This document shows, one piece after another, positions 5,793 through 24,460 of a stretch of 64,000 nucleotides of DNA. The notes beneath the pieces were generated by a model. That model did no database searches, had not been told where the DNA came from, and saw only the letters and a program-made list of their open reading frames with translations. This DNA comes from Escherichia coli (GTDB lineage Bacteria > Pseudomonadota > Gammaproteobacteria > Enterobacterales > Enterobacteriaceae), in NCBI RefSeq assembly GCF_044324875.1, contig NZ_CP172185.1; one strand, 5' to 3'. Positions within the stretch are counted from its first letter, which is position 1. Each line of letters opens with the position of its first letter. Position numbers and translations under genes: made by a program.

Positions 5793-5830
5793 CTTAACGT
5801 GAGTTTTCGTTCCACTGAGCGTCAGACCCC
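5793..5830. repeat. Solo 38-bp Tn3-type terminal inverted repeat
   Basis: cttaacgtgagttttcgttccactgagcgtcagacccc is the exact reverse complement of the Tn3 IR GGGGTCTGACGCTCAGTGGAACGAAAACTCACGTTAAG. The outer (GGGG) end faces right, towards fosR. No partner IR was seen in the window. Confidence 0.85.
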
Positions 5831-5905
5831 TATAAACACCTTAGTGAAGTCATCCTCGCAGGTAAGGCAACACATCCGTAAGGTATTTGGCCAAATCAAA
5901 TACAA

Positions 5906-6901
5906 CTAGATTGACTCGCGGGGAAGCCAGGGACTCTCAACTATCACTTTATCCCGGTGGGTGTCACCATTGATAATGTGCAGTGTACTTAAGCGCCCAA
6001 TTTCATAATGCGGTAGCTGGACCGTGGATAATGGGGGTAAAAATAAGTTTCCAATGCCTACAAGATTGTCATAGCCAAGAACGGCAATATCCTGTGGGAT
6101 TCTGATACCCTGCGTTAACAATGTTTGATACACCATAAATGCAATACGATCGTTACCACAGATGACCGAATCAAATCGCGGTTTCCCCTGTTCGATATGC
6201 GCCAGCAACATCTCCGGAATATCTCGGTAGTGCTCATCGCCGAATTGCATATAGCAGTGCTCAAGCGTATCAGGATCGATACTGGCTTCCCTGCAGGCGC
6301 GATCAAGCCCACGACGACGACGACGCGTCGCCAGATGGTTGACGGGTAAATGCAGGCATAGAGGGCGGCTGTATCCTGCTGCCAGCAGTGCCTGTACGGC
6401 CGTATACTGGCCATGTTCATCGTCAGGTATATAGCTGGCAACCGGCTCTCCCTTGTTCTCGCAGTTGGCCAGAACGCAAGGAAGCTCCAGTAACCGGGGA
6501 GGAATACTGACTTCACGCAGCCCCATGGTAGTAAAAATGATCCCCCCGGGTCGATGGGCGAGCAGCAGGTCGACAATATCGTCAGGATTATCATCGGTAA
6601 ACATATTCACCACAAAGCTGTTCCAGCCATACGCCCGCGCGGTTTCTTCAATAGACAGCGTGATTTCTACTGAAAAAGGAGTGGTGACCGTATCCAGCGC
6701 AAGCACACCAATCGTTTTGTTCCGGGTGCCAACACGACGAATCTGCTGGGCAGAAAGGTCTGGCACATAATTTAACTGCGTGATCGCCTCCTGCACCCGA
6801 GCCAGAGTCTCAGGCTTTACGCGTTTCGGGTCATTCAGCACCCGTGAAACCGTCATGAGCGATACATTGGCCAGTTTGGCCACATCCTTTAAAGACGCCA
6901 T
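5906..6901 (-). CDS. fosR: LacI/GalR-family repressor of the fos locus
   Basis: 331 aa with an N-terminal HTH (MASLKDVAKLANVSLMTVSRVLN) and a periplasmic-binding-protein-like core. It is divergent from the fos operon. Confidence 0.85.
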   Translation of the reverse strand: MASLKDVAKLANVSLMTVSRVLNDPKRVKPETLARVQEAITQLNYVPDLSAQQIRRVGTRNKTIGVLALDTVTTPFSVEITLSIEETARAYGWNSFVVNMFTDDNPDDIVDLLLAHRPGGIIFTTMGLREVSIPPRLLELPCVLANCENKGEPVASYIPDDEHGQYTAVQALLAAGYSRPLCLHLPVNHLATRRRRRGLDRACREASIDPDTLEHCYMQFGDEHYRDIPEMLLAHIEQGKPRFDSVICGNDRIAFMVYQTLLTQGIRIPQDIAVLGYDNLVGIGNLFLPPLSTVQLPHYEIGRLSTLHIINGDTHRDKVIVESPWLPRESI

Positions 6902-7007
6902 AGTTTTCCATTATCTGAATGCATACACCCGGTAAGGTGTTGTGAGCAAATGCGAATGCCCTATTCTAGGCACGGACACCCAGGGTTATGCAGACCACTC
7001 TGATAAA

Positions 7008-7023
7008 TTTGAGCTAGATCTCA
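7008..7023. promoter_or_regulatory. Candidate CRP site (TTTGA-N6-TCTCA)
   Basis: tttgagctagatctca matches 4 of 5 positions in each half of TGTGA-N6-TCACA. It lies in the fosR-fosT divergent region. A second half-site, TGTGA-N6-TCGAC, lies at 7049-7064. Confidence 0.4.
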
Positions 7024-7033
7024 ACATTTCAAT

Positions 7034-7045
7034 GTTAACGTTAAC
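7034..7045. promoter_or_regulatory. Candidate LacI-family operator, perfect palindrome
   Basis: gttaacgttaac is a perfect 12-bp palindrome with the central CG typical of LacI/GalR operators. Confidence 0.5.
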
Positions 7046-7095
7046 TTTTGTGATTAACATCGACAAACAAATCAAAATCGAGTGTCCCCCCAAAA

Positions 7096-7109
7096 TGATA
7101 ACGTTACCA
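7096..7109. promoter_or_regulatory. Candidate LacI-family operator, near-perfect palindrome
   Basis: tgataacgttacca is a 14-bp palindrome with one mismatched pair and a central CG, 33 nt upstream of the fosT ATG. Confidence 0.5.
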
Positions 7110-7141
7110 TATTAGCATATCCTTCTTACGAGATTACGTAG

Positions 7142-8380
7142 ATGAAAAAACGGCCTACTCGAAGTTACATGCTGCTCAGCGCTCTGCTGTTCTTTTTCTT
7201 TGTGACCTGGTCCTCATCAAGTTCACTGCTCTCAATCTGGCTTCACCAGGAAGTGGGGCTAAAAGCATCGGAAACCGGCATTATTTTTTCAGTATTATCC
7301 GTCTCCGCGCTCTTCGCGCAGGTCTGTTATGGCTTTATTCAGGACCGACTTGGTCTGCGCAAACATTTGTTATGGTTTATCACCGCGTTGTTGATCCTCT
7401 CCGGCCCGGCTTATCTGCTTTTTAGTTATTTGCTGAGCGTTAATATTCTGCTGGGCAGCGTATTCGGGGGCTTATTTATCGGGCTGACGTTTAATGGGGG
7501 TATCGGCGTTCTGGAGTCCTATACCGAGCGCGTCGCGCGTCAAAGTACCTTTGAGTTTGGGCGGGCACGCATGTGGGGGTCTCTGGGCTGGGCAGTTGCC
7601 ACGTTTTTTGCCGGGTTACTGTTTAATATCAACCCTGACCTTAACTTCCTGGTGGCTTCATGCTCAGGGTTAATCTTCTTCTGCCTCCTGGCCCGATTAA
7701 AGGTGGCCGCGCCGGCAAGCATGGAGAAACTCGAAATTGGCGCTAAAAAAGTTTCTCTGGAAGACGCCCTGCGTCTGCTTACTCTGCCGCGCTTCTGGGC
7801 ACTGATATTCTTCGTGGTCGGAACCTGCATTTACGGCGTATACGATCAGCAATTCCCGGTCTATTTCTCATCACAGTTCCCGACATTACGCGAAGGGAAC
7901 GAGATGTTTGGCTATTTAAACTCTTTCCAGGTCTTTCTCGAGGCCGCAGGTATGTTTTGTGCGCCGTGGCTGGTTAATCGCATTGGTGCTAAAAATGGTC
8001 TGATATTCGCAGGAATGGTGATGGCGCTGCGCATGATTACTTCAGGGCTGGTGGAAGGCCCCCTGCTTATCTCCATTACCAAACTGCTTCACGCGGTCGA
8101 ACTGCCAATATTGTTAGTCGCCATATTTAAATACAACAGTCTGAATTTCGACAAACGTCTCTCCTCCACCATTTATCTGGTGGGATTTGCCTGCACCAGC
8201 TCCGTCATTGGTACCGTATTGTCCCCGCTGGCAGGCTTTAGCTATGAGAGATTTGGCTTCGCCCAATCCTATCTGATCATGGGCATCATGGTGTTCAGCA
8301 CCACGTTTATTTCCATTTTCCTTTTGCGCTCAACTAAATCCTCATCTGAGCCATCTTTTCTGCAGCAAAAAGCTGTGTAA
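7142..8380 (+). CDS. fosT: Oligosaccharide:H+ symporter (LacY/CscB-type MFS)
   Basis: 412 aa, 12-TM, resembles LacY/CscB/RafB. It is the first gene of the operon. Confidence 0.85.
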   Translation: MKKRPTRSYMLLSALLFFFFVTWSSSSSLLSIWLHQEVGLKASETGIIFSVLSVSALFAQVCYGFIQDRLGLRKHLLWFITALLILSGPAYLLFSYLLSVNILLGSVFGGLFIGLTFNGGIGVLESYTERVARQSTFEFGRARMWGSLGWAVATFFAGLLFNINPDLNFLVASCSGLIFFCLLARLKVAAPASMEKLEIGAKKVSLEDALRLLTLPRFWALIFFVVGTCIYGVYDQQFPVYFSSQFPTLREGNEMFGYLNSFQVFLEAAGMFCAPWLVNRIGAKNGLIFAGMVMALRMITSGLVEGPLLISITKLLHAVELPILLVAIFKYNSLNFDKRLSSTIYLVGFACTSSVIGTVLSPLAGFSYERFGFAQSYLIMGIMVFSTTFISIFLLRSTKSSSEPSFLQQKAV

Positions 8381-8399
8381 TGTACTGAGAATAAAGACG

Positions 8400-9833
8400 A
8401 TGACATCCTTATTAGAACAGGCTGAACAGGTGCTTGAAAAAGCACAATCCGGGATTAATCCGCGCTGGTATCCGCGCTATCACCTCGCCCCTCGCGCAGG
8501 CTGGATGAATGATCCTAATGGCCTGGTATGGTTTGACGGCTGGTATCACGCCTTTTATCAACACCATCCCTACTCCCCGAAATGGGGTCCGATGCACTGG
8601 GGGCACGCCCGAAGCAAAGATCTGGTGCATTGGGAACATTTGCCCGTCGCGCTAGCGCCGGAAGGCCCGGCGGACAAAGACGGCTGTTTCTCAGGTTCCG
8701 CCGTGGTGGACGGCGATACGCTGGCGCTCATCTATACCGGACATAAATTTCACGGCCCGTCGGACACTGACGACAACCTCTACCAGGTGCAGTGTCTGGC
8801 GACCAGTCGTGACGGCATCCATTTTGAACGGCACGGCAAGGTGATTGATACACCGCCCGGACTGCATCACTTTCGCGATCCGAAGGTGTGGCGCGAAGGT
8901 GAGTTCTGGTACATGGTTGTCGGTTCCCGCGTGGAAAATACCGGTCAGGTGCGCCTGTACCGTTCCACCGATCTCCGCGAATGGCATGACGAAGGTATTT
9001 TCGCCGAGGCTGATGAAGGCAAGGGCTTTATGTGGGAATGCCCGGATTTCTTCCCCCTGGGAGAGAAGCGTGTCCTGATGTTCTCGCCGCAGGGCATGGC
9101 GGCGGAAGGGTATCACTATCGCAACCTGTTCCAGAGCGGTTATTTACTTGGGGACTGGCAGCCAGGTCAACCGTTCACCCACAGCGGACAATTTACTGAG
9201 CTGGACCACGGCCACGACTTTTATGCCCCGCAGAGTTTCCTGACCCCGGATGGCCGACGCATTGTCATCGGGTGGCTGGATATGTGGGAATCATCGATGC
9301 CCGAACAGCAGGATGGCTGGGCCGGAATGCTCTCGCTTCCTCGCGAATTAAGCCTTGTCGATGGTCGTGTGAGAATGAAACCTGCTGCCGAAGTGACCGC
9401 GCTGCGTGGCAGCTATTATCCCACGCCCGTCCGCTGTCTGAACAATCAGAACGTCCTTGTCGCGGCAAATGCCGACGCGGTCGAAGTTCAGTTGGCATGG
9501 GATTTGAGCGCATCGACGGCTGAACAGTTTGGTATCGCGTTGGGCGACGGGTTGAGAATTTACGTCGATGATCAGGCTGGGCGTCTGGTGGTGGAGCGCC
9601 GCTATCCGGAATATTCGCTGGAAGGCACTCGCAGTATTCCGCTTCCAGCAGACAGCGTTCTGTCACTGCGAATTTTTATTGACCGCTCATCGGTGGAAGT
9701 TTTTGTTAACGATGGTGACGCTTGCTTAAGCAGTCGTATTTATCCGCAGCCGGGCGAGCGTGATATTTCATTGTTTGCAAATCTGGGGAAGGCCTCATTA
9801 TACGATGCGGGATACTGGTCTTTAGATAAATAA
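8400..9833 (+). CDS. fosGH2: Cytoplasmic GH32 beta-fructofuranosidase
   Basis: 477 aa with no signal peptide. It carries the GH32 motifs WMNDPNG, FRDPKV and WECPDF. Confidence 0.9.
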   Translation: MTSLLEQAEQVLEKAQSGINPRWYPRYHLAPRAGWMNDPNGLVWFDGWYHAFYQHHPYSPKWGPMHWGHARSKDLVHWEHLPVALAPEGPADKDGCFSGSAVVDGDTLALIYTGHKFHGPSDTDDNLYQVQCLATSRDGIHFERHGKVIDTPPGLHHFRDPKVWREGEFWYMVVGSRVENTGQVRLYRSTDLREWHDEGIFAEADEGKGFMWECPDFFPLGEKRVLMFSPQGMAAEGYHYRNLFQSGYLLGDWQPGQPFTHSGQFTELDHGHDFYAPQSFLTPDGRRIVIGWLDMWESSMPEQQDGWAGMLSLPRELSLVDGRVRMKPAAEVTALRGSYYPTPVRCLNNQNVLVAANADAVEVQLAWDLSASTAEQFGIALGDGLRIYVDDQAGRLVVERRYPEYSLEGTRSIPLPADSVLSLRIFIDRSSVEVFVNDGDACLSSRIYPQPGERDISLFANLGKASLYDAGYWSLDK

Positions 9834-9997
9834 TTCTCCGTTCCGACCTGTTTCTTGCAGGGTGAGTTTTTATTTCTGCCAGTCTCTGGCTGGCATGTTA
9901 TTGTCTGGAATAATGAGAGAGCAAAATGGATGAAAGCGTAATACCTCAAAATTGCATTACCTCGAAAGATAAAAATATATTTGTTCCAGGAAAACAG

Positions 9998-11191
9998 ATG
10001 CTGGCATTAATGGTGACATTAGCAGCATTTCCTGCCATTGCTGAAGACGTTACAGGAAACTATCAAAGCTATTTTCAGGATGAATCAGACACCAACGGTA
10101 CGAGTGTTTCATTAGCCAATCAAGGCAATGAAAAATCATCCCTTAGCGCTTCATCTTCTCCGGTTGCTGCAGGTCAAAAACCTGAACTCACGACCTCGTC
10201 AAAGCCAGTGACGTTATCGGCACCAATGGAGAATAAGAAAACTGCAGTAGAAAAACGTCCTAAAGGGGATAACCCTAAAGATGTCAGTCTGTTGCGTTTA
10301 AGGCAGGAAGATCCGCCGGTTCACTGGAACAGTATTGGTCGTAACATGGAAGTGGGTAGCTTGCATGGGAACATTGGATCTCAGATAGAAATTGACGATG
10401 TTCGCTGGAGCAATAATAAGAAAAACAGCGGCAAGTTTAAACTCGCCACCATTCAGGCTTTTTTAAGGCACGATGAATTGCCTAACTGGTATTTCGGTTT
10501 CTGGAATGCCAGAGAAGACAGTTATAAAGGACAGTTCAGTAATCAGGACTATAAAGGCACCAATACCATCAATGAATTTTTTGTGGGCCATATTTTCGAA
10601 ACCTGGCGGGGTAATATCGGTACGGAAGTCATGGTCGGCTCCGAAACGGCAACTAAACGCTGGAAAAACCGGTTCAAAGTCTGGCAGGACCTGCGACTGT
10701 CCAACAAATGGAGCCTGGCCGGATACGCGTATGGCGAGTATCAGCCTCAGGGGAACGAACCGGGGAATGGCGATCTGGAGCAGTACATTTTCGAAATTGA
10801 GCCAGCCATTCAATACCGCGTGAATCCGGATCTCGGACTCTATTTGCGGCCCTATTATTACCATAACCGCCAGGAGCGTCAGAGCTGGGGCGACATTGTA
10901 GAAGAAGAATGGAAAGTCACGGCCGGGCTCTGGCGAAACTGGTATCCATTATTAACCTCCCTGTATGTTGGATTTGGCCAGGACAAAATAGATAACGCCA
11001 GCAATGCCAGCGAAGTTTTCTATGACGGCCGTTATAAGTTTATCGGTGGAACGCTGAGTTATCCGGTATTTGGTGAGGTGCGATTATATGGTGAATTCAA
11101 GGCACAATTTACGAAAGAAACCGGACTTTGGACATCAACCGGTCACTCATGGAATCCGTTTACCGTGGTTGGCGTGAATTATAACTTCTGA
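9998..11191 (+). CDS. fosX: Predicted outer-membrane beta-barrel protein with a low-complexity N-terminal extension
   Basis: The start is chosen at the ATG at 9998 (AGGA 6 nt upstream), giving the signal peptide MLALMVTLAAFPAIA; the track ORF starts at 9926. The C-terminus ...VVGVNYNF has a terminal Phe, the OMP beta-signal. It is paralogous to fosY. Confidence 0.7.
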   Translation: MLALMVTLAAFPAIAEDVTGNYQSYFQDESDTNGTSVSLANQGNEKSSLSASSSPVAAGQKPELTTSSKPVTLSAPMENKKTAVEKRPKGDNPKDVSLLRLRQEDPPVHWNSIGRNMEVGSLHGNIGSQIEIDDVRWSNNKKNSGKFKLATIQAFLRHDELPNWYFGFWNAREDSYKGQFSNQDYKGTNTINEFFVGHIFETWRGNIGTEVMVGSETATKRWKNRFKVWQDLRLSNKWSLAGYAYGEYQPQGNEPGNGDLEQYIFEIEPAIQYRVNPDLGLYLRPYYYHNRQERQSWGDIVEEEWKVTAGLWRNWYPLLTSLYVGFGQDKIDNASNASEVFYDGRYKFIGGTLSYPVFGEVRLYGEFKAQFTKETGLWTSTGHSWNPFTVVGVNYNF

Positions 11192-11205
11192 TATTCAGGT
11201 GTAGC

Positions 11206-12699
11206 ATGAAAAAATTAATAGTTGCGGCATCTTTCGCTCTGCTTGCGCTTTCGCTCGGCAATAACCCTGCCTGGTCACAGCCTTCGAAAGAGACATTACA
11301 GAATAAAAGCATCACCCATATTAATGGCTTTTTTCCGAGGGTTGAAGGTTCATTCGTGGGCGACCCTATGCCCGTTTTTAACGATGGCAAATTTGATATT
11401 TATTATCTTAATGATGTCCGAGGCGGCAGCGATCTGGGGGTACATGCTTTTCATCTCTTGTCGAGTGCCAACTTGTATGATTATCAGAACCATTCGGAAG
11501 TGATCCCCTACGTTAACGACGTTGACGATCCTGAACTGTTATTGGGAACCGGTTCGATTATTAAAGTCGGCGATACCTGGCATGCCTGGTACACCGCACA
11601 CAATGAAAATGTGTTCCCGGTTGAGTCTGTTATGCACGCGACCAGTAAGGACCGCCTTCACTGGGTGAAACACCCGCAGGACACCCTGTTACCCGGCGGT
11701 AACTATCGGGGTAATGATTTCAGGGACCCTCACGTCGTTTGGGTTGAGGAAAAGAAAGAATACTGGATGTTAATTACTACGCGCAGTAATGGTCGTGGGG
11801 TTATTGCCCGATACAGTTCAACGGATTTAAAGCACTGGGAAGATCGCGGCGTATTTTTTGATAACGACACCATCACCAGCAATGCCAACCTCGAATGCCC
11901 GACACTGGTTTACTTCAACGGACGCTGGTATCTCAGCTTTAGCGACCAATGGCCGTTACGCCTGACACAATACCGGGTTGCGGACAATCCGGAGGGGCCG
12001 TGGCGGAAACTGGACAATTATGTGGTCGACGGCTCAGGTTTTTACGCGGGTAAACTGGTTCTCAAAAACGATCGGCTGTTTGTTTTCGGCTGGATCCCGA
12101 CGAAAGCCGGTAACCGTGACAGCGGCAACATTGATTGGGCAGGGAATCTGGTTGCTCATGAGCTCACCGCAGATGCCCAGGGCCAGCTCAACAGCATCCT
12201 CCCCCAGGAGCTTCAGAAGGTCATCAGTGAGAATCCTGGCCCGGAAACCACCTTGACGAGCACTAAGACACTCAAAACGGACACGTCGTTCGGCCCCTTA
12301 CAGTCGGCGCTGTACCCGGCCTTGCCTGAGCGCGGTGAGTTGAGTGCAACCATCGATGTTCCTTCTGCCGGAATGGTGATGAGCTTTGGTCTGACCGACG
12401 ACAGAGTCAGTGATGCGATGCTGAACGTTGTGTTCAATAAGAGCAAAGGAAAAGTCTATTTTTTCAACGCGCCGCTAGCGTCGATTCATCAGGCTAACGC
12501 GGAATCCTGGGTGGACATTCCGATCGGGGAAAAAATTGAGTTACGCGTTCTCATACAAAACTCAATTGCTGTCTTTTATATAAACAACAAAGTGGCATTC
12601 AGTACCCGGATGTATTCCATGCAGGAGAAACCGTGGAGTATTAGCCTGCCTCAAAACGACCATTTTCACGCGACGTTGAAAATAAAAGAAATGATTTAA
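11206..12699 (+). CDS. fosGH1: Secreted (periplasmic) GH32 fructan/FOS hydrolase
   Basis: 497 aa with the signal peptide MKKLIVAASFALLALSLGNNPAWS. The GH32-like motifs are DPMPVFNDG, FRDPHVVW and LECPTLV. Confidence 0.8.
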   Translation: MKKLIVAASFALLALSLGNNPAWSQPSKETLQNKSITHINGFFPRVEGSFVGDPMPVFNDGKFDIYYLNDVRGGSDLGVHAFHLLSSANLYDYQNHSEVIPYVNDVDDPELLLGTGSIIKVGDTWHAWYTAHNENVFPVESVMHATSKDRLHWVKHPQDTLLPGGNYRGNDFRDPHVVWVEEKKEYWMLITTRSNGRGVIARYSSTDLKHWEDRGVFFDNDTITSNANLECPTLVYFNGRWYLSFSDQWPLRLTQYRVADNPEGPWRKLDNYVVDGSGFYAGKLVLKNDRLFVFGWIPTKAGNRDSGNIDWAGNLVAHELTADAQGQLNSILPQELQKVISENPGPETTLTSTKTLKTDTSFGPLQSALYPALPERGELSATIDVPSAGMVMSFGLTDDRVSDAMLNVVFNKSKGKVYFFNAPLASIHQANAESWVDIPIGEKIELRVLIQNSIAVFYINNKVAFSTRMYSMQEKPWSISLPQNDHFHATLKIKEMI

Positions 12700-12711
12700 C
12701 GGGATATTATT

Positions 12712-13725
12712 ATGAAAAACTATCATGCCCTGTCTGTTATTTTTACTCTTATGTTACCCGCGCTGGCGAATGCGAGCATGAGCATCATGAAGGATCCGTC
12801 TGGAAAGGTTATCGCCGTGGACCCTTGGTCATATCTTGATGAAGATGTTATGTGGACCTCAGCCCGCTCCTCCAATCCTGCCGGTGGCCGCGTTCATGGC
12901 CAACTGAAAATGAAATATGCCATTGAGGATAATAACTGGCGTAACAGCCATTTCCACAACGGGAATGATTCGCTGACGTTTGTACAAGGTGTGATGCGGC
13001 ACGATGCGTTACCCGGTTGGTATCTGGCTTTCTCTGAGGGCAGAACCACTAACTATAACGGGACGTGGGAGGATCAGTCTTACCTCAGCCAAAACCAGTG
13101 GACTCAGTTGATCATCGGCCATGAATATTTTTACAAGCGTCTGCGCTATGGCTGGGATGTGATGGGAGGAAGCGCCTCAATCGAAGACCGCTGGCAAGGC
13201 CGCGTTAAGTTCTTTACCGATCTTCGGGTTACGGATAATTTCTCATTCTTTAACTACCTGTATCAGCAGATCGATCACCGGCGCAGCGGTGGGTCGCAAA
13301 ACGACCGTGACGTGCGTTCATTTCAGATTGAGCCAGGCGTGCAATACATTATTAATAACAACACCGGTGTCTGGTTCCGCCAGCAGTTCGCATCTGCCAT
13401 TTTAGACAGGGCGCAGTGGGGCGATATCGACGAAAAAAGCTGGACCACGTCAGTCGGCGTCTGGCGAAACTGGGGGAAGTTATCCACAACGCTCAGCGGC
13501 GGTTATGGTCATTATAAGAAATACAATGCGCAACCTGAGGATGGCGAAGTCTTTCAGAATACCCGCAATCGCTTCCTGAAGGTATCGGCAAATTATCCTT
13601 TGACCTCTCGTTTTACCGTGTCCGGAGAAGTTACTGGTTCGTTGATCAAACAGAACGGAAGTTGGGTCACTAACGGTGAGGCCATTACCACTGAGTATAA
13701 GCTGATGCTGGATTATAACTTTTAA
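12712..13725 (+). CDS. fosY: Predicted outer-membrane beta-barrel protein, paralogue of FosX
   Basis: 337 aa with the signal peptide MKNYHALSVIFTLMLPALANA and the C-terminus ...LMLDYNF. It shares blocks with FosX: RHDxLPxWY, F(E/Q)IEPxxQY, WGDIxExxW...WRNW. Confidence 0.7.
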   Translation: MKNYHALSVIFTLMLPALANASMSIMKDPSGKVIAVDPWSYLDEDVMWTSARSSNPAGGRVHGQLKMKYAIEDNNWRNSHFHNGNDSLTFVQGVMRHDALPGWYLAFSEGRTTNYNGTWEDQSYLSQNQWTQLIIGHEYFYKRLRYGWDVMGGSASIEDRWQGRVKFFTDLRVTDNFSFFNYLYQQIDHRRSGGSQNDRDVRSFQIEPGVQYIINNNTGVWFRQQFASAILDRAQWGDIDEKSWTTSVGVWRNWGKLSTTLSGGYGHYKKYNAQPEDGEVFQNTRNRFLKVSANYPLTSRFTVSGEVTGSLIKQNGSWVTNGEAITTEYKLMLDYNF

Positions 13726-13838
13726 ACCGTACGCTGGATAATCCATGCCACCTGAACACGCTGAAGCGTTAGTAAAAATAGTGACCTTACCGCAGGTCAC
13801 GTTTAAAAAAACAAGTTAATTATTATTAAGGAAATATC

Positions 13839-14801
13839 ATGAATATCTGGACTCTTGGCGATGCTGTTGTTGATCTTCTACCCCTTACAGATATGCAATT
13901 TCGTGCTTGTGCAGGAGGTGCGCCATTTAATGTTGCGATAGGTACTGCACAATTGAAATGTCGTACCGGCTTTATAGGTCGCGTAGGGGATGACGATTTT
14001 GGCCATTTCCTGAGAAAAACTCTCGAAGATTCAGGAGTTTCTACACAATGTATCCAAATGGATAAATATCATCGTACAAGTACAGTACTGGTTTCTCTTA
14101 AAGATCAGGGAGAACGTGGTTTTACATTTCTTACGAACCCTTCAGCCGACCAATTTCTAACACAAGATGCCCTTCCAGCTTTTAGTGATGATATCCTGCA
14201 TTTTTGTTCACTTGCGCTGGTTGCTGCAGATTGCCGCACGACTTTGACTAAAGCAGTCCAGGAAGTCATTGACCACGGTGGACTTATCAGCTTTGATGTT
14301 AATTTACGAGACCAAATGTGGCGTGATAAGGAAGAAATGTTTGCGACAGTGAGTCAATTCGCTGAAAAAGCCGATATCCTTAAACTCTCTGAAGAAGAGT
14401 GGTACTGGTTAATGGGTACACATGATTATACAGAGGCGTTAGAAGCACTCAAAACCCATCCTGCCAGATTAAAAGTGGTCACCTTTGGTGCGAGAGGTTC
14501 ATTGGTATTATGGCAAGATATGGTGATACATTTCAGAGGATTTAATGTTAAAAGTATTGACACAACAGGCGCTGGAGATGCTTTTATGGCTGGGTTACTT
14601 GCCAGCATCGCCAATAAAGGTTTGCCAATGAATTTTCCAGAACTTCAATTAGCAATCACTCAGGCCAGTGCCACCGGAGCGCTCGCAACTACCAAAAAAG
14701 GTGCACTTACCGCCCTTCCTGATACAGCCGCACTGGAAACGTTCATTAATCATTTTCCATTACCGGGCTATGAGATCCTTGGAGCAACCGCTACGGTGTA
14801 A
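13839..14801 (+). CDS. fosK: PfkB-family fructokinase
   Basis: 320 aa with the PfkB signatures (GDAVVD..., DTTGAGDAF). It is visibly more AT-rich than the upstream fos genes. Confidence 0.85.
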   Translation: MNIWTLGDAVVDLLPLTDMQFRACAGGAPFNVAIGTAQLKCRTGFIGRVGDDDFGHFLRKTLEDSGVSTQCIQMDKYHRTSTVLVSLKDQGERGFTFLTNPSADQFLTQDALPAFSDDILHFCSLALVAADCRTTLTKAVQEVIDHGGLISFDVNLRDQMWRDKEEMFATVSQFAEKADILKLSEEEWYWLMGTHDYTEALEALKTHPARLKVVTFGARGSLVLWQDMVIHFRGFNVKSIDTTGAGDAFMAGLLASIANKGLPMNFPELQLAITQASATGALATTKKGALTALPDTAALETFINHFPLPGYEILGATATV

Positions 14802-14909
14802 CAACTTTTCATGCTGTATGGTGTAGGAATATAGCAAACGTATCTTCAATTGTTAGTTATGACCTCTAGAAGTATGAGATATCTTTTGTAGATAATCATG
14901 GCTGTGTAT

Positions 14910-15454: not shown

Positions 15455-17026
15455 TTACTGAGAGCTCAGATCAACTTTCCAGGGCAACAGATCGCGTACC
15501 CGGTTTGCCGGCCAGTCCTGGATATGTTCAATGACGTAACGCAGCCACTTTTCTGGCTCCACATTGTTCAGACGGCATGTGCCGATCAGCGAGTACAACA
15601 CCGCCGCATGTTCACCACCGCTGTCGGAACCCGCGAACATCCAGTTTTTCCGGCCTACGGCCACTCCCCGTAAGGCGTTCTCTGCGATGTTGTTGTCGAT
15701 TTCCACCCAGCCATTACTGCAGTACACGTTCAGTGCATCCCACTGTTTCAGCAGGTATGCGAACGCTTTTGCCGTATCTGAGTGACGCGACAGTGTTTTC
15801 ATCTGTTGCTGTATCCAGTCATACAGTGACTGCATCAGTGGCGCGGCTCTGGCTTTTCTTGCCGCCAGACGCTGTTCTGCTGAACAGCCCCGGACCTCTG
15901 CCTCGATGGCATACAGTTCACCGATACGCTGCAGGGCTTCCGTGGTGATGTAGGTGGGCGCTCTTGCATGCACATCGTGGATTTTTCTCCGGGCATGAGC
16001 CATACACGCGGCTTCCGTTATTCTGCCGGATTCGTATAACGCCCGGTAACCACCGTAAGCATCGGCCTGAAGCACACCGCTGTAACCGGCCAGGTGATTT
16101 TGTGGATGGATACCTTTCCGGTCCGGACTGTACGCGAACCAGACCGCCGGGGGCATCTGTGAACCGGCGTTACGGTCATCACGGACGTAGACCCACAGCC
16201 GGGCTGTCCGGGTTTTACCGCTGCCCGGCTCCTGGACCGGGACGGGGATATCATCAGCATGGACTTTACCGGGCATCAGCACATACTGGCGCAGGACGTC
16301 ATACAGCGGCTCCAGCAGTTCAGCAACAGCACCTGTCCAGCGCCCCAGTGTGGCACGGCTCAGCTCCACTCCCTGACGACGGTATATTTCTGACTGGCGG
16401 TATAACGGCAGATGGTCTGCATATTTCCCGGTGACAACATGGGCCAGAAGCCCCGCTCCGGCATAACTGCGTGCAATGGGTTTTGAAGGTACTGGTGCCT
16501 GCACGATATGGTCGCACCGGCAACAGGCCTGTTTCGGACGTTGTGTTTCGATAACCTTAAAGGCGCTGCTGATAAGCTCCAGTTGCTCTGACACATCACA
16601 TCCCAGAGAACTGAGTTCACCACCACAGGCAGGACAGCATTCCTCTTCCGGCCGGATAACCCGGGTTTCACGGGGAAGTGAGGCCGGTAACGGTTTACGG
16701 GCTGAAGACTGGCGCAGGGCGGATGGCAGTACCGGGTCATATTGCTCACCCAGCGTTTCCGCCATTTCTTCCTGAAGTGCGCTGATTCGCTCCTGTGCTT
16801 CCTGTATCTGCCGTTCGGTTTTTGCACGAAGTTTTTCTGAGCTTTTACCGAACTGCATACGTTGCAGTTTCGCAACCAGCGCCTTCAGCCGGTTGATTTC
16901 GGAAGCATAAGCCGCCACCCGCTGTGAGAGCAGGCGGTTGTATTCAGCCATCTGGCGGATGGTGTCCTGTTGCGTCTGCAACAGTGCCCGCAGGCGGGCG
17001 TTCTCATGAGCAAGTGAGGTGTCCAT
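15455..17026 (-). CDS. tnpC: IS66-family transposase TnpC (523 aa)
   Basis: Track ORF with an N-terminal coiled coil/leucine zipper, a CxxC...CxxC zinc motif and a DDE core typical of IS66 transposases. Confidence 0.9.
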
Positions 17027-17045
17027 ATCCTCACTTTACAACGGG

Positions 17046-17393
17046 TTATATGCGGATTCCAGCGCGTTCCGTTCGTTTCGGGTGCTTCCAGTTGATACCT
17101 TCAAGAAGCATGGATAACTGAGCCGGAGTAAGGTGCACCTTGCCGTCACGGGTGACTGGCCAGACGAAGCGGCCCCGCTCCAGGCGTTTGGTGAAGAGGC
17201 ACAGTCCGTCACTGTCAGCCCACAACACTTTTATCTGGTCACCCCGGCGTCCGCGGAAGATGAACAGGTGTCCGGAGAACGGGTCATCCTTCAGGACGTT
17301 CTGAACTTTTGATGCCAGGCCGTTAAAGCCATTTCGCATATCGGTGATACCTGCAACCAGCCAGATACGCGAACCTGCAGGGAGAGATATCAT
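17046..17393 (-). CDS. tnpB: IS66-family accessory protein TnpB (115 aa)
   Basis: MISLPAGSRIWLVAGITDMRNGFNGLASKV..., the canonical IS66 Orf2. Its ATGA start overlaps the upstream ORF. Confidence 0.9.
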   Translation of the reverse strand: MISLPAGSRIWLVAGITDMRNGFNGLASKVQNVLKDDPFSGHLFIFRGRRGDQIKVLWADSDGLCLFTKRLERGRFVWPVTRDGKVHLTPAQLSMLLEGINWKHPKRTERAGIRI

Positions 17394-18070
17394 CAGTGGC
17401 TGCTCCCTTTTATTTCGCGGATAAGTGTCTGTAATAACGCCGGCGTCAGTTTACCTTTAAGCCTGAGAGTTCCGGCCGGCAGAACCAGCTCACAACACAG
17501 ACTGTCGGACGGTGTATTTATCTGCTCTGGTTCCTGTGCGGGGGCCGGGATTTTATTATCCGGCTCCGGCGTTAACGTCACGGGAAGCAGTGCCGGCATA
17601 TTTTTTCCGGAAGGCAGCAGGCCACCTTTCCGGTATTGATGGCGCCAGTTGAAGAGCAGGTTATCGTTGATTCCGTTTTCCCGGGCGATCTGCGCCACAC
17701 AGGCTCCGGGCTGCAGTGACTGCTCCACTAAGGCGATTTTAAACTCATAAGGGAAGTTGGGCCGCCGGGGACGTTTTTTTACCACGGGGGCTTCGGATAT
17801 AACGGTGCTTTCAGGACGTACGACTGGTACCGTGGAAAATTGTCCGTAAAGGCAGGCATCAAGTTCCTGCTCCGACATGCCTGCGGGCAAAGGCCACGAA
17901 AGGCCAGCTCTCCGAAAGCGCACGAACATACTACAAACTGTTGATTTTGGTACACCCAGGCGACGCCCGGCCACAACCCGGGGTAAATGTTCTTCAAAGT
18001 GAAGACGTAAAGCTTCAGTGATCCAGGTCCGGTGTTTCATACGATAGTGTCCATTAAAAATGATGGACAT
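17393..18070 (-). CDS. tnpA: IS66-family accessory protein TnpA-like (225 aa, two HTH-like segments)
   Basis: The C-terminal half (FKIALVEQSLQPGACVAQIARENGINDNLLFNWRHQYRKG) matches IS66 Orf1. There is an extra N-terminal HTH-like region. Confidence 0.75.
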   Translation of the reverse strand: MSIIFNGHYRMKHRTWITEALRLHFEEHLPRVVAGRRLGVPKSTVCSMFVRFRRAGLSWPLPAGMSEQELDACLYGQFSTVPVVRPESTVISEAPVVKKRPRRPNFPYEFKIALVEQSLQPGACVAQIARENGINDNLLFNWRHQYRKGGLLPSGKNMPALLPVTLTPEPDNKIPAPAQEPEQINTPSDSLCCELVLPAGTLRLKGKLTPALLQTLIREIKGSSH

Positions 18071-18140: not shown

Positions 18141-18416
18141 GTGGCTTCCATTTCCATCAGATGTCCTTCCTGCTCCGCTACTGAAGGCGTGGTGCGTAAC
18201 GGCAAAAGCACTGCCGGACATCAGCGCTATCTCTGCTCTCATTGCCGTAAAACATGGCAACTACAGTTCACTTACACCGCCTCTCAGCCCGGTACGCACC
18301 AGAAAATCATTGATATGGCCATGAATAGCGTCGGATGTCGCGCCAGTGCACGCATTATGGGCGTTGGCCTCAACACGGTTTTACGTCACTTAAAAAACTC
18401 AGGCCGCAGTCGGTAA
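18141..18416 (+). CDS. insA: IS1 InsA (91 aa)
   Basis: [43 protein letters not shown]... The A6C frameshift motif taaaaaac is at 18391-18398. Confidence 0.9.
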
Positions 18417-18790
18417 CCTCGCGCATACAACCGGGCAGTGATGTGATTGTCTGCGCTGAAATGGACGAACAGTGGGGCTACGTCGGTGCTAAATCACGTC
18501 AGCGCTGGCTGTTTTACGCGTATGACAGGATACGGAGGACGGTTGTGGCGCACGTCTTCGGTGAACGCACTCTGGCCACACTGGAGCGTCTTCTGAGCCT
18601 GCTGTCGGCCTTTGAGGTCGTGGTATGGATGACGGATGGCTGGCCGCTGTATGAATCACGCCTGAAGGGAAAGCTGCACGTTATCAGCAAGCGTTACACT
18701 CAGCGCATTGAGCGACATAATCTGAATCTGAGATCTGGCAAGGCTGGGACGGAAGTCACTGTCGTTCTCAAAATCGGTGGAGCTGCATGA
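18335..18790 (+). pseudogene. insB: IS1 InsB' frame with a 3' lesion
   Basis: The frame is collinear with InsB until ...RHNLNL, then reads [19 protein letters not shown] instead of [24 protein letters not shown].... The DNA has ctgagatctggcaagg where IS1 has ctgaggcagcacctggcacgg, a net 5-nt loss. Confidence 0.75.
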
Positions 18791-19430: not shown

Positions 19431-21812
19431 TTAATCATTACAGGATAGGTTCATATTCCATTCATAAGCCTCAATGCCGTTAATCAGTAGTTGACGACTT
19501 TCTCCCTGAGGAATTATCACTTTCAATGTTTCCCATGCAGGGCGATAATCTCCATGAGTGTTTATTCTTAACTCAATTGTAGTGGCTGTGCAGTCCAGCT
19601 CCCATTCAAGCCACAGAGCATTACCTTCAGTATATCCCCAAGTTTCGCCATCATCTTCAAACAGAAGTCCGGTGGATTTACCCGTTCCTTTAATTGGGAA
19701 TAATTTCAATTTACGATGATTATCTTCCGCTTCACTCACGTATGTTATACGTTCACTAAGAGGAATACCTGCACCTGCACGTACTAATAATGGTAGTTTT
19801 TCCAGTGGCGCGTCGATTGTTATCCATTGACCACCACAGAACCATTCGCCATTGTAAAAGTCGTACCATCCTGTTTTGTTGTCGGGTAACCATACTCGTC
19901 GTTGTCGTTGCCCTGCTTCCACGACACTTGCAACCAGAATATCGCGTCCCAGCATAAAATCATCACATTCTTCAAATGTCTGAACATCGTGCTCATGATC
20001 AAGGAAGGTTGGACGTAATATTGGCTCATCATCGGCATGTGCCTGCCACAATAATGTATATAAATAAGGCATAAGACGATAACGTAACTCAATTGCACTA
20101 CGAATCGCGGGTGTTACTTCCGGATACATCCATGGTTCATTGACAGTATGATCATCATTCCACGAGTGGATCGTAAATCGGGGGTGCATAACACCGTTCT
20201 GAACCCAACGAACAAATAATTCTGGATCAGGCTTATCACCAGAAAAACCACCGACATCATGACCAATGTTATACAATCCTGAGAGGCTCATTCCCAGCCC
20301 CATGCGGGTGTTGTATCGAAGGGTATCCCAGTTAGTTCGGTTGTCCCCACTCCATGTCTGAACATAACGCTGCAATCCGGCGCATCCAGAGCGGGAAATC
20401 AAATATGGTCGTTTGTTCGGTGCAAATTTTTGCTGTGCTTCCATAGATGCTCTGCACATTAAAAGAGGCATTACTGGCCGAATGTGTTTAATGGCGATTT
20501 CTTTGCCAAAACCATGACAGCGCGCTTCCCCATCCCATACTTCAAACTCATTGTTATCATTCCAGGTGGAATCAATTCCCATTTCAAGTAGTTGTGTGGT
20601 TACACCTTCCTGCCACCATGCGACTGTTTGTGGGTTCGTAAAGTCCAGATGAGAACCCTCATCATCCCAGAAGCTGGAGCGTTCCGGGACGTTGTATTCA
20701 GAGTCACGAATAAAGAGCTCTTGTTCTGCTACTTCGTTATAGCGAGGATGATCCTGCAATAAACATGGTTTTATATTAGCGGCCAGGTGTATCCCTGCAT
20801 TATGAAACTCCTGACTCATCATTTTAGGGTGTGGAACTTTGTCGTAATTCCAGTTGAATACGTAGCGTTTACCATTAATAGAAGTATAACCAGAAGATAG
20901 CTGGAAAGAATCACATGGAATAGCATGTTCCTTACAAAGACGAATAAACTGCATCAATTGATTCTGAGCATCCGGTGCATCTGTATAGTGCATCGTGGAA
21001 CCGCTGTACCCAAGACTCCATTTTGGACCGAAGAGTGTTTTCCCCGTCAAACGAACAAAGGCTTTGGTGATATCAAGTACACATCTGCCAGTGAAAAGAT
21101 AATAATCAATATCTCCCGCCTCAGCCTGCCAACGGCGGTAAGTTGTATGATAATTATCTATTTCATTACCTAAATCCAGCCAACTATTGCTGAGGTTATC
21201 ATAAAATAATCCAAAGCTAATATCGCTACGGTGAGTAATTGTAAATGGAATATGTTTATAAAGAGGGTCTGTACTTACTGCATTATATCCCATTGCGTCC
21301 AGGTTCCGCATTTCATAGCGTTTTCCTGTGCGTTGCAGATCCCCGGATTTATCACCAAGTCCATAAAAACGCTCGTCATTACGTCGACTTTGATAGTGTG
21401 CAACACCATCACCATGAGCGTTTATCAGATAAGCACTGGTAGGGCGATCATTAACAAGTTCCTGCCACTGACCAGCATTATCCTTATAATGCCATTCAAG
21501 CCATAAAGGCTTGTGAATAATTACGCGTAATGAACTGGTCGTGATTGTCAGTAATTCATCATTCTGCTCCATGTTCCAGGTCGGCAGTGAAAAACCGCTA
21601 ATATCTTCGCGATGACGCCCTTCCCACGGGACATCCTTTTCCGGAGCAATGCTCCAGGTTCGGTCCAGCGACAAAACCCCCTTCCGTTTTAATAGAACCC
21701 GGAACATATTTTCTTCGAGTATATACAGGCAAAGAGAATGCTGACCATCAACTAATAGCTCTATATGATGGGCTGACTGATTTTGTAGTTTCCAGTTTTT
21801 TAATGTTTTCAT
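19431..21812 (-). CDS. GH31 family alpha-glycosidase (about 793 aa)
   Basis: The GH31 catalytic motifs are present: ...DSTWNDNNEF (nucleophile Asp region) and GHDVGGF (acid/base region). The start is taken at the ATG at 21812 (GGGAG 9 nt upstream); the track ORF begins at the GTG at 21818. Confidence 0.85.
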   Translation of the reverse strand: MKTLKNWKLQNQSAHHIELLVDGQHSLCLYILEENMFRVLLKRKGVLSLDRTWSIAPEKDVPWEGRHREDISGFSLPTWNMEQNDELLTITTSSLRVIIHKPLWLEWHYKDNAGQWQELVNDRPTSAYLINAHGDGVAHYQSRRNDERFYGLGDKSGDLQRTGKRYEMRNLDAMGYNAVSTDPLYKHIPFTITHRSDISFGLFYDNLSNSWLDLGNEIDNYHTTYRRWQAEAGDIDYYLFTGRCVLDITKAFVRLTGKTLFGPKWSLGYSGSTMHYTDAPDAQNQLMQFIRLCKEHAIPCDSFQLSSGYTSINGKRYVFNWNYDKVPHPKMMSQEFHNAGIHLAANIKPCLLQDHPRYNEVAEQELFIRDSEYNVPERSSFWDDEGSHLDFTNPQTVAWWQEGVTTQLLEMGIDSTWNDNNEFEVWDGEARCHGFGKEIAIKHIRPVMPLLMCRASMEAQQKFAPNKRPYLISRSGCAGLQRYVQTWSGDNRTNWDTLRYNTRMGLGMSLSGLYNIGHDVGGFSGDKPDPELFVRWVQNGVMHPRFTIHSWNDDHTVNEPWMYPEVTPAIRSAIELRYRLMPYLYTLLWQAHADDEPILRPTFLDHEHDVQTFEECDDFMLGRDILVASVVEAGQRQRRVWLPDNKTGWYDFYNGEWFCGGQWITIDAPLEKLPLLVRAGAGIPLSERITYVSEAEDNHRKLKLFPIKGTGKSTGLLFEDDGETWGYTEGNALWLEWELDCTATTIELRINTHGDYRPAWETLKVIIPQGESRQLLINGIEAYEWNMNLSCND

Positions 21813-21826
21813 CTCCACATACTCCC

Positions 21827-23128
21827 TCAGGTGCGTTTTTTGCGACGTTCTGCAATAAAAGTAACCAGAAAAAAAGCACCAATAAGATCAAAAAATCCCA
21901 TGGCGATAAATAGCGGGTTAAAGCCTATTTTGTCAGCAGTAACGCCAATAATCAGTGAGAACAAAAAGCTGGCAATCCATGCGGCTGAACCACGCATTCC
22001 ATTAACAGTGGCCATCTGCCCCTTATCAAAAGATTCAACGACCAGGGCACTTAACATGCAGGAAATTATCTGATGACCAAAACCACCAATGGAGATAAGT
22101 ACAATAGCAATATATGGATTGTCGATAAAAGCAATCACAGCAAGCGAAACCATTAGAAATGCTCCGCTTACAGAGGACGCAATAACAGAATTTACTCTGC
22201 TTAACCCAAACAGACGGGTATAGAGTTTTGTCAGATATCCGCTGGCAATACTTCCTAAATCAGCGCAAAGAAATGGTAACCATGCAAACAGAGCTATTTG
22301 TTTAAGGTCCATGCCATATGCTTTTGCAAGATATAATGGCACCCAAAAGCTCATTACAGCCCATGCTGGCTCTGCCATAAATGCAGGGATAGCGATTCCA
22401 TAAAAGCGTTTATTTTTACTAACTGTTTTTAACGCGGTCAGAAAAGGCATTTTTACCGGAGGAGCTTCGTTATCCTGTCGGATAAAGTTGAGCTCATTTT
22501 TACTTAAGTTTGGGTGCTCTTCTGGTGTGTTATAACACGCCCACCAAAGGAAAACCCAAAGAATTGCAAGTGCACCTGTAAACATAAATGCACCCTGCCA
22601 ACCAAATGACGCATGTGCAAAGTAAATAATTGGTGGTGCAAGCATTGCACCGATAGAAAAACCGACACCCGCCCAGCCAGCAGCAACAGGACGTTCAGAT
22701 TTTGGAAACCACTCACCTATAATTTTTGCATTTGCAGGTGTCGCAGAAGCCTCAGCACCTCCCATGAAAAAACGAAGCAACGCAAGCTGTATCCAGCTTC
22801 CTGCTCCTGCATGCAGAAGACAAGCAATTCCCCATAATGAAGCACAAATCATAAATCCAATCTTGAGCCCAATAACATCAATTAGCCATCCACAAAGTGG
22901 CTGAAAAAGGGTATATGCAAGCTGAAATCCACCAACAATCCAGGAGTATTGTTCAGTTGTAATTCCAAGGCTGTCTTTTAACTCTGGTGCCAAAATACCT
23001 AATGAGTTTCTGGTAATATAATTGACAGTGACACCCATTAGAAAAAGGATTAACATCCACCACCGTAGTTGTCTTATTATTCGACGGTGTTTGCTGACAG
23101 CTATATTATTATTTATATCCTGACTCAT
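21827..23128 (-). CDS. MFS transporter of the anion:cation symporter type (ExuT hexuronate-transporter-like)
   Basis: Collinear similarity to E. coli ExuT as I recall it (LRWxM..., YLTRN, FPxxERxxAxG, AEPAWxxxxxW.PL, FAWxPxLxADLG). The start is chosen at MSQDINNN (23128). Confidence 0.8.
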   Translation of the reverse strand: MSQDINNNIAVSKHRRIIRQLRWWMLILFLMGVTVNYITRNSLGILAPELKDSLGITTEQYSWIVGGFQLAYTLFQPLCGWLIDVIGLKIGFMICASLWGIACLLHAGAGSWIQLALLRFFMGGAEASATPANAKIIGEWFPKSERPVAAGWAGVGFSIGAMLAPPIIYFAHASFGWQGAFMFTGALAILWVFLWWACYNTPEEHPNLSKNELNFIRQDNEAPPVKMPFLTALKTVSKNKRFYGIAIPAFMAEPAWAVMSFWVPLYLAKAYGMDLKQIALFAWLPFLCADLGSIASGYLTKLYTRLFGLSRVNSVIASSVSGAFLMVSLAVIAFIDNPYIAIVLISIGGFGHQIISCMLSALVVESFDKGQMATVNGMRGSAAWIASFLFSLIIGVTADKIGFNPLFIAMGFFDLIGAFFLVTFIAERRKKRT

Positions 23129-23389
23129 AATCACCCCACCGGATGTAATAAATGATCGAGCGACAACGCAGCTCGGGGTTGCCACATCCCACTTTACCTT
23201 TCGGCTTAATACTTAAACCGGAACTACTCATTCACAATAAAAGAGGGGGGCGATGAAAAAAAGTTGGTATTGTGCACGTTTTTTCATAAGTAGTTCATAT
23301 AAATTCTAAAAATAGTCAGAAGTCCTTGCAGTCAGGCTATTCCATCCCATGAGAATTTTTTCATTTTGAAATTAGAGATAGATCACAAT

Positions 23390-24460
23390 ATGGAAAAAAA
23401 ACTAAAGATTGCTGATATTGCCATGCGAACAGGCCTTTCATCCAGCACCGTGTCACGGGTTTTAGCGGGTAAAGCTAATACCAGTTATCGTGCCCGCGAG
23501 AAAGTATTGGCGTGTGCCAGAGAGCTTGGGGTTATGGATGGAATGGCATCCGGCCGTATGTTGTTAAACAACCTTGTCATTTTTGCTCCTCAACGGGCTT
23601 TTGATGAGCGAACAGACATTTTTTATTTCCGCGTAATCCAAAGCATCAGCAAGGCATTATCGCATTATGAGGTTCGGTTGCGTTACTGTGCCCTTGATGA
23701 GTTCGATAGTACACCTTCAAAATTCCTGGCGCGCATGAATGAGGCAGAAACACAGGCTGCAATATTGCTTGGTATTGATGATCCTCATATACATGATCTT
23801 GCAGCAGATTTTTCTAAGCCGTGCGTAATGATTAACTGCCATGATCGACGTATGCGTCTTCCCACAGTTGCTCCAGATCACAAAAACATTGGTGCTTTTG
23901 CGTCTCACTTTCTGTTTGAAATGGGGCATCGCAGAGTAATGAACATTATGTGTTTACGTCGATACACAATGGAACTGCGACTTGCCGGAATTAAAGAAGC
24001 ATGGGAGAGACAGAATCAGAACTTTAAAGATGACAGAGATTTACTCACTATTAATAGTTTCAGCGCCAAAGAAGCCGAAGAAAAAGTCGGAGCATGGCTG
24101 GATATGACAGAGAAAAGTATGCTACCGACTGCTTTTTTGGCAAGTGGGGACTTCATTGCTGCAGGTATAATTAACGCTTTAAAAAAACGTAATATACGAG
24201 TGCCACAAGATGTGTCCGTAATGAGTATTGATGGGTTTAATCTGGCTGCAATAGAAGATGTGCCACTTACGGCAGTACATGTACCTCGCGATGAACTGGG
24301 TACTGAAGCGGTACATATGTTACAACAAAGACTTGTACGTCCTGATGCAACTGTTGGTGCATTACTTTTGTATGGGAAACTGGTAATACGAGAATCTGTT
24401 CGCCGTATACGGCCAGGGAAAGAGCCAACTCCGATTAAAGGAGATGGACTGTATGACTGA
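23390..24460 (+). CDS. LacI/GalR-family transcriptional regulator
   Basis: It has the HTH KIADIAMRTGLSSSTVSRVLAGK and a sugar-binding core. It is divergent from the MFS-GH31 pair. The start is taken at the ATG at 23390. Confidence 0.85.
   Translation: MEKKLKIADIAMRTGLSSSTVSRVLAGKANTSYRAREKVLACARELGVMDGMASGRMLLNNLVIFAPQRAFDERTDIFYFRVIQSISKALSHYEVRLRYCALDEFDSTPSKFLARMNEAETQAAILLGIDDPHIHDLAADFSKPCVMINCHDRRMRLPTVAPDHKNIGAFASHFLFEMGHRRVMNIMCLRRYTMELRLAGIKEAWERQNQNFKDDRDLLTINSFSAKEAEEKVGAWLDMTEKSMLPTAFLASGDFIAAGIINALKKRNIRVPQDVSVMSIDGFNLAAIEDVPLTAVHVPRDELGTEAVHMLQQRLVRPDATVGALLLYGKLVIRESVRRIRPGKEPTPIKGDGLYD

Follow-up and report, generated by a model that had tools for sequence, protein, structure and literature searches.

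Two genes of the fos locus of extraintestinal pathogenic Escherichia coli, fosX and fosY, flank a gene coding for a secreted family 32 glycoside hydrolase (GH32), and are described here in a 64,000-nucleotide stretch of E. coli contig NZ_CP172185.1 (assembly GCF_044324875.1), which we refer to as the window and whose numbering is used for all coordinates below. Sequence comparison, structure prediction and gene context lead us to conclude that FosX and FosY are probably monomeric, passive channels with large pores, built as 14-stranded beta-barrels of the class to which CymA and OmpG belong. They would admit fructo-oligosaccharides (FOS) to the periplasm, where the secreted GH32 would shorten the chains; the inner-membrane carrier FosT would then import the products, and a cytoplasmic GH32 together with the kinase FosK would finish their breakdown.

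FosX and FosY are paralogous members of a small porin family

The FosX gene (9926..11191, plus strand; 421 aa) and the FosY gene (12712..13725, plus strand) are separated by the secreted GH32 gene, known in the literature as FosGH1 or FosE (11206..12699, plus strand; signal peptide and PF00251 match). FosX and FosY are 31% identical by BLASTP, with 49% positives over 329 aa and E=1e-52, which is far above chance and bears out the paralogy proposed in an earlier sequence-only reading of the region. The shared blocks on which that proposal drew are all present, as LRHDELPNWY in FosX and MRHDALPGWY in FosY, FEIEPAIQY and FQIEPGVQY, and WGDIVEEEW..GLWRNW and WGDIDEKSW..GVWRNW. Both proteins end in YNF, as had also been pointed out, and the terminal phenylalanine never varies among the aligned orthologues of either protein; the invariant C-terminal positions are N336 and F337 for FosY, and Y419 and F421 for FosX.

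The same reading had assigned cleavable signal peptides to FosX, FosY and the middle GH32, and hydrophobic cores followed by AXA-type sites are found in all three, with predicted cleavage at ..LAAFPAIA↓EDV, ..LPALANA↓SMS and ..NPAWS↓QPS, respectively. The FosX signal peptide covers aa 1-39 (9926..10042, plus strand; hydrophobic core aa 26-35, predicted site AIA↓ED) and that of FosY aa 1-21 (12712..12774, plus strand; core aa 6-15, cleavage at ANA↓S), and A21 and S22 are near-invariant in the FosY orthologue alignment. The start of FosX had been placed at 9998, and this is probably wrong: the methionine at 9998 is threonine or serine in many orthologues, and an upstream start at 9926 ('MDE...') is kept in most of them and is also the RefSeq start. 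The start is therefore most likely 9926, which gives the signal peptide an unusually long n-region of ~24 residues.

Both proteins match PF16946 (Porin_OmpG_1_2, 'OMPG-porin 1 family'; gathering score 23 bits) over essentially the whole profile, FosX with 434 bits (E=3e-130, profile positions 2-294 of 294) and FosY with 430 bits (E=8e-129, positions 1-294 of 294), and both are named 'OmpG porin family protein' in RefSeq. The barrel and porin assignment is thus already in the databases and is not new there, although the fos papers still label the two proteins as of unknown function, as the sequence-only reading stated. No NCBIfam model matches FosX or FosY, no characterised member of the PF16946 family was found in the literature, and a literature search combining OmpG-type porins with GH32 or fructans returned no paper. 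A hidden Markov model (HMM) search of 1.84 billion representative proteins recovered only 22 clusters of the family at E<1e-3; the family is very small and is tied to fructan loci.

The family is distinct from OmpG proper, as neither FosX nor FosY matches PF09381 at E<=1, and E. coli OmpG matches PF09381 and not PF16946. Comparison of the PF16946 family profile with E. coli OmpG by hhalign gave a 58-column local match with a probability of 6.7%, which we have not taken as evidence of homology.

FosX and FosY are predicted to form 14-stranded barrels

Structures were predicted with AlphaFold2 using orthologue alignments, and strands were counted with DSSP. The FosY model contains 14 strands over aa 61-336, with a mean predicted local distance difference test score (pLDDT) of 81 and a predicted template modelling score (pTM) of 0.76. 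The FosX model likewise contains 14 strands, over aa 146-420, with pLDDT around 80-95 in the barrel and below 50 for residues 1-143. The predicted barrels thus correspond to aa 146-421 of FosX (10361..11191, plus strand) and aa 61-337 of FosY (12892..13725, plus strand), each ending in YNF immediately before the stop codon. An even number of strands, a Sec signal peptide and a C-terminal aromatic beta-signal are the general attributes of outer-membrane beta-barrels, and all are present; the earlier prediction that both are outer-membrane barrels holds in these models, which show no non-barrel fold.

In a Foldseek search with the FosY model the top 12 matches are all CymA or OmpG, with a TMt of 0.74 for OmpG. 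The modelled barrels superimpose on CymA and share the 14-stranded barrel fold of OmpG, and by these predictions FosX and FosY are closest in fold to CymA and OmpG; sequence identity in the structural alignments with CymA is 9-11%. The sequence-only reading had likened the pair to small substrate-specific channels such as Tsx, KdgM and NanC, and whereas the idea of a substrate channel is reasonable, the strand number (12 versus 14) and the structural scores rule out these proteins as the family; Tsx is not among the listed structural matches. Members of the LamB/ScrY maltoporin family, which are 18-stranded trimers with a greasy slide, are also absent from the listed structural matches, and that family gives no Pfam match. 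An analysis of strand register, which is rough because the strands extend beyond the membrane, suggests that polar, charged and aromatic residues predominate among those facing the lumen, and FosX and FosY each have clade-specific conserved residues that are predicted to be lumen-facing.

The fosX-GH32-fosY triad is conserved across genomes

Gene context is the strongest new evidence. A scan using one genome per species identified 29 loci, which are distributed among the Enterobacterales (Enterobacter, Citrobacter, Erwinia, Pantoea, Kosakonia, Brenneria and others), the Orbaceae and Anaerobiospirillum, and the order FosX, secreted GH32, FosY is intact in every one of them. The triad persists even where the remainder of the locus does not accompany it. 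Five Brenneria loci (L025-L029) keep it, and in four of these FosK, FosT or the cytoplasmic GH32 lies several kb away; in the fifth, none of these three was found within the region fetched. In Anaerobiospirillum (L023) the triad is also kept, and FosT, the cytoplasmic GH32 and FosK are not linked to it. A unit of fosR-fosX-GH32-fosY stands alone in these Brenneria and Anaerobiospirillum loci, and the fos locus is modular in this respect.

In a neighbour-joining tree the FosX and FosY clades are sisters, with the single-copy members of the family outside them, which indicates one duplication after which both copies have been kept ever since. Five distant single-copy members were examined, and four of them (P0045, P0048, P0052 and P0057) are encoded immediately downstream of a GH32 gene; all four of these loci include an ABC (ATP-binding cassette) sugar importer, and three have a second GH32 of the cytoplasmic type. 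In three of the distant loci (L033, L036 and L038) the enzyme upstream of the porin is a FosGH1 homologue with 35-39% identity, and in two of them (L033, 6318-7847; L036, 3472-4968) this enzyme is a predicted lipoprotein with glycine at +2 (LAAC↓GG and TAAC↓GG, respectively).

The fifth distant member (P0046; L032, 8001-9014) has no adjoining GH32 gene and is flanked by ABC sugar-importer genes on one side and by a LacI-type regulator gene on the other. The gene that comes next codes for a GDE-like (glycogen-debranching) hydrolase with a faint match to GH100, an invertase family. This context raises the possibility that the PF16946 family may serve other oligosaccharides too. The porin genes of L033 and L040 are followed by genes for proteins of 229 aa and 401 aa; these were considered as hidden paralogues and rejected, because neither matches the family HMM. 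The 401-aa protein (L040, 9136-10341), which follows the porin gene in a distant fructan locus, is a predicted lipoprotein without a Pfam match.

The enzyme between the barrels resembles an endo-levanase

The middle GH32 matches PF00251 (E=2e-23) and carries the BT1760-like C-terminal domain PF16346. Its best matches among PDB sequences are chains of the endo-levanase BT1760 (6r3r, 7znr and 8a9y) with E of about 1e-45, in contrast to only 2e-7 for exo-fructosidases, and the GDPMP, FRDP and ECP motifs of the two enzymes coincide in the alignment, in keeping with the catalytic Asp (nucleophile), RDP Asp and EC Glu of a GH32 enzyme. This closeness to BT1760 rather than to the exo-fructosidases suggests that its substrate could be longer or beta-2,6-linked fructans. 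The signal peptide (aa 1-24; 11206-11277) carries the signal peptidase I (SPase I) site AWS↓Q and lacks a lipobox, and the enzyme is presumably periplasmic. It had been described as the only GH32 of the locus with a signal peptide; this is correct, as the GH32 encoded at 8400-9833 does not have a hydrophobic N-terminus.

The N-terminal segments preceding the barrels

Both proteins have conserved segments ahead of the barrel, and FosX has in addition a long tether. Near its mature N-terminus is the motif YQSYF (aa 46-50; 10061..10075, plus strand), with conservation of 90% or more at Y46, Q47, S48 and Y49 and pLDDT below 50; the motif is present in 80 of the 83 FosX-type cluster representatives, and both FosY and Brenneria FosX lack it. 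It is followed by a low-complexity tether rich in serine, alanine, threonine, proline and lysine (aa 51-118; 10076..10279, plus strand; pLDDT 26-34), which is predicted to be disordered and periplasmic. The sequence of the tether is not conserved, and pooled linkers have only 14% hydrophobic residues. From YQSYF to the PPVHW anchor, where the barrel starts, there are 70-152 residues with a median of 79.

Immediately ahead of the FosX barrel is a segment (aa 119-145, DVSLLRLRQEDPPVHWNSIGRNMEVGS; 10280..10360, plus strand; low pLDDT) that aligns with FosY aa 34-60 and shows little or no variation at S121, R124, V132, H133, W134, G144 and G145. The mature N-terminus of FosY (aa 22-60, SMSIMKDPSGKVIAVDPWSYLDEDVMWTS...; 12775..12891, plus strand) is strongly conserved; W48 is invariant and there are 20 near-invariant positions between 21 and 59, and pLDDT (52-64) is lower than in the barrel. 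By analogy, these pre-barrel segments of FosX (aa 119-145) and FosY (aa 22-60) could be a plug like that of CymA or a hatch like that of FadL.

A more elaborate arrangement, which we put forward as a speculation with little chance of being right, is that fosX, the GH32 gene and fosY encode a three-component outer-membrane machine. The tethered YQSYF motif would act as a ball and chain that gates the FosX pore or that of FosY, or would capture the fructanase at the channel exit, and FosX and FosY would have distinct roles, for example for different linkage types or chain lengths. If true, such a machine would be a proteobacterial counterpart of the Bacteroides levan utilisome that does not depend on TonB. 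A correlation between YQSYF and the presence of fosT in the operon was considered and none was seen: Brenneria is without both, and in Anaerobiospirillum the motif is present and no fosT is linked.

A proposed route for FOS uptake and alternatives to it

From the paralogy, fold, family membership, export signals and conserved gene linkage established above, we infer that FosX and FosY conduct FOS and that they do so passively. The general porins OmpF and OmpC have an exclusion limit of ~600 Da, and FOS of 504-828 Da are at or above that limit. FosX and FosY would provide a passive route across the outer membrane for kestose (504 Da), nystose (666 Da) and fructosyl-nystose (828 Da), and perhaps for longer or levan-type oligomers. 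In the periplasm the BT1760-like GH32 would shorten those chains whose length the inner-membrane carrier cannot accommodate; FosT, a LacY-type symporter, would take the short oligomers across the inner membrane; and the cytoplasmic GH32 would hydrolyse them, with FosK phosphorylating the fructose. The locus would then comprise two modules, one for the outer membrane and periplasm (fosX-GH32-fosY) and one for the inner membrane and cytoplasm (fosT-GH32-fosK). A two-compartment scheme had been proposed in the sequence-only reading and it fits the gene context, given that all 29 loci have the triad, including those in which FosT, the cytoplasmic GH32 and FosK are elsewhere; the trimming of FOS in the periplasm would be the work of an enzyme whose nearest solved relative is an endo-levanase.

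Several points weigh against this route. Experimental work on either fosX or fosY did not come to light in the fos literature, the original 2009 paper being outside the coverage. Neither FosY alone (phmmer) nor a 24-sequence profile found anything relevant among PDB chain sequences, including CymA and OmpG, at E<=10, so that predicted structures alone link the pair to characterised channels. A 2012 paper describes Klebsiella loci with the opposite truncation, containing only the regulator, transporter and GH32, and loci without barrels suggest that FosX and FosY are not essential for the shortest FOS. A fosT deletion strain has been reported not to grow on short-chain FOS (scFOS), with complementation by the whole locus. 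This phenotype suggests that the periplasmic GH32 alone does not release usable monosaccharides from scFOS, and any role of this enzyme in scFOS use is putative; the deletion was possibly polar on the downstream genes. The phenotype would fit an enzyme that is endo-acting or prefers longer chains and feeds FosT, and an exo-hydrolase would be a poor fit. Lastly, the route does not account for the constant retention of two co-transcribed channels.

The close structural match of OmpG to FosY (TMt 0.74) and the OmpG-type names in Pfam and RefSeq would also suit another function, in which FosX and FosY are non-specific large pores that raise the permeability of the outer membrane when the operon is induced, have no fructan-binding site and are redundant with each other. 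We regard this as unlikely. The family is tiny, at 22 clusters, four of its five distant members are beside a GH32 gene and the fifth is in another sugar locus, all of which points to specialisation; and the presence of both paralogues in all 29 loci, with clade-specific residues predicted to face the lumen, argues against simple redundancy. Transport of a different kind, by FadL-like proteins with an N-terminal hatch or by exporters of a product, and with no sugar uptake, would be in keeping with the conserved 39-residue N-terminal segment of FosY, which is about the length of the FadL hatch. This is highly improbable, because CymA and OmpG score clearly higher structurally, the context is one of carbohydrate catabolism throughout, and the residues predicted to face the lumen, in the rough register analysis, are mostly polar, charged or aromatic.

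It is also conceivable, if rather improbable, that FosX and FosY are partners of the GH32 instead of, or besides, being channels, and serve to anchor or export the enzyme, to display it on the cell surface or to dock it where the channel opens into the periplasm, in a three-protein 'mini-utilisome' with the YQSYF tether as the docking element. The strict adjacency of GH32 and barrel genes across deep divergence agrees with such a role, as do the prediction of the FosGH1-like enzyme as a lipoprotein in two distant loci (L033 and L036) and the fact that BT1760, the nearest solved relative, is a surface lipoprotein within an outer-membrane complex; in FosX the long disordered tether with its conserved motif has no other explanation at present. 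However, the signal peptide of the E. coli enzyme carries an SPase I site rather than a lipobox, and Brenneria FosX is without YQSYF, yet the triad is still kept. To our knowledge barrels of the CymA/OmpG class act as diffusion channels only, and a lumen of ~15 Å is too narrow for a folded enzyme of 55 kDa. We favour FosX and FosY as passive channels of the CymA/OmpG class that admit FOS.

Organization and distribution of the fos locus

The triad is preceded by fosR (5906..6901, minus strand), which codes for a LacI-family protein with Pfam LacI and Peripla_BP_1 matches, is divergent from the operon and is a repressor according to the fos literature. Transcribed in the same direction as the triad are fosT (7142..8380, plus strand), coding for a LacY-family inner-membrane importer of the major facilitator superfamily (MFS; PF01306 LacY_symp, E=7e-126), and the gene for the cytoplasmic GH32 of the sucrose-6-phosphate hydrolase / beta-fructofuranosidase type (8400..9833, plus strand; PF00251, E=1e-108; TIGR01322, E=6e-143). 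Downstream of FosY is fosK (13839..14801, plus strand), which codes for a PfkB-family sugar kinase (fructokinase; PF00294, E=1e-53).

The intergenic gaps within the triad are 14 nt (fosX-GH32) and 12 nt (GH32-fosY). The cytoplasmic GH32 gene is separated from fosX by a 92-nt spacer (9834-9925) in which a consensus scan identified two terminator-like hairpins on the plus strand (9847-9861 and 9877-9895); the predicted fold is -26.9 kcal/mol, with a z-score of only -1.74. On this weak evidence the hairpins may be a module boundary, an attenuator or an mRNA-stability element between the two modules.

Several E. coli chromosomes are 100% identical to the 9.1-kb fos stretch. The locus is rare: in a search with window positions 5800-14900 as the query, most of it is present in 37 of 5426 complete E. 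coli genomes. The same query gave 140 matching places among E. coli genomes, 101 of them on plasmids and each of these covering part of the query.

Directly downstream of fosK is an IS66-family insertion sequence (IS) element (tnpA, tnpB and transposase; 15455-18070), followed by IS1-like open reading frame fragments (18141-18790); strain 510016 has the same IS66 element at this site in reverse orientation. The fos locus is part of an island that also carries a second sugar locus, made up of a GH31 hydrolase gene (19431-21818), a gene for an MFS transporter (21827-23185) and one for a LacI-type regulator (23366-24460). At its edge a phage-type integrase gene (26312-27496) adjoins tRNA-SeC (27796-27890, minus strand), past which are genes for an MFS_2 transporter and a GH31 enzyme (28126-31893).

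Significance and comparison with known systems

FOS are widely used as prebiotics, and the fos locus has been reported to favour colonisation of the gut by an avian pathogenic E. coli strain. In the fos literature only the inner-membrane carrier FosT has been studied, and the crossing of the outer membrane by sugars of 500-830 Da is not addressed. Assignment to the CymA/OmpG class provides a concrete and testable route for FOS entry and delineates a small family of fructan-linked porins. CymA has been explored as an entry route for antibiotics and peptides, and large-pore monomeric channels in general are possible routes of this kind and candidate nanopore scaffolds. The advance is incremental, substrate channels in sugar operons being a familiar theme; its useful products are the correct assignment to a structural class, the link to GH32 genes across deep divergence and the N-terminal motif that FosX carries on its tether, each directly testable.

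CymA of Klebsiella oxytoca (PDB 4D5B and 4D51) has 14 strands, and its gene belongs to the cym sugar-utilisation operon. The protein has been described as a monomeric passive channel that passes alpha-cyclodextrin (~1 kDa), with a pore of ~15 Å that is partly filled by a mobile N-terminal peptide of 15-21 residues. The FosX and FosY models resemble it in their 14 strands, and the conserved segments ahead of the barrels could act like its N-terminal peptide. The differences are in the context, which for fos is GH32 and fructans, a LacY-type carrier and a fructokinase rather than a cyclodextrin operon, and in the fos channels being an obligate pair of which one, FosX, has an extra disordered tether of 70 or more residues with YQSYF.

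OmpG is non-specific and is gated by pH through its loop 6. It is similarly a 14-stranded monomeric porin with a large pore (PDB 2F1C and 2IWV) and is the source of the Pfam and RefSeq names of FosX and FosY, but its precursor of 301 aa has no room for a long conserved pre-barrel segment or for the FosX tether. The ompG gene of E. coli is at the end of a sugar-catabolic gene cluster.

ScrY, LamB, RafY and ChiP are likewise outer-membrane channels co-expressed with genes for the uptake and hydrolysis of an oligosaccharide that general porins admit poorly, although they belong to other families and do not form paralogue pairs. ScrY has a periplasmic N-terminal extension. An N-terminal plug is used by VhChiP. 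KdgM, NanC and Tsx are small substrate-specific outer-membrane channels of catabolic regulons and are comparable in this regard, but they have 12 strands rather than 14.

The levan utilisome of Bacteroides also couples a GH32 genetically to an outer-membrane transporter, and the middle GH32 of the fos locus is BT1760-like. However, the utilisome employs a TonB-dependent, 22-stranded SusC with a SusD lid and a surface-lipoprotein enzyme, whereas fos has small barrels of the passive class and, judging from its signal peptide, a soluble enzyme in E. coli. Based on their modelled structures, FosX and FosY appear to be uncharacterised members of the monomeric 14-stranded oligosaccharide channels found in catabolic operons.

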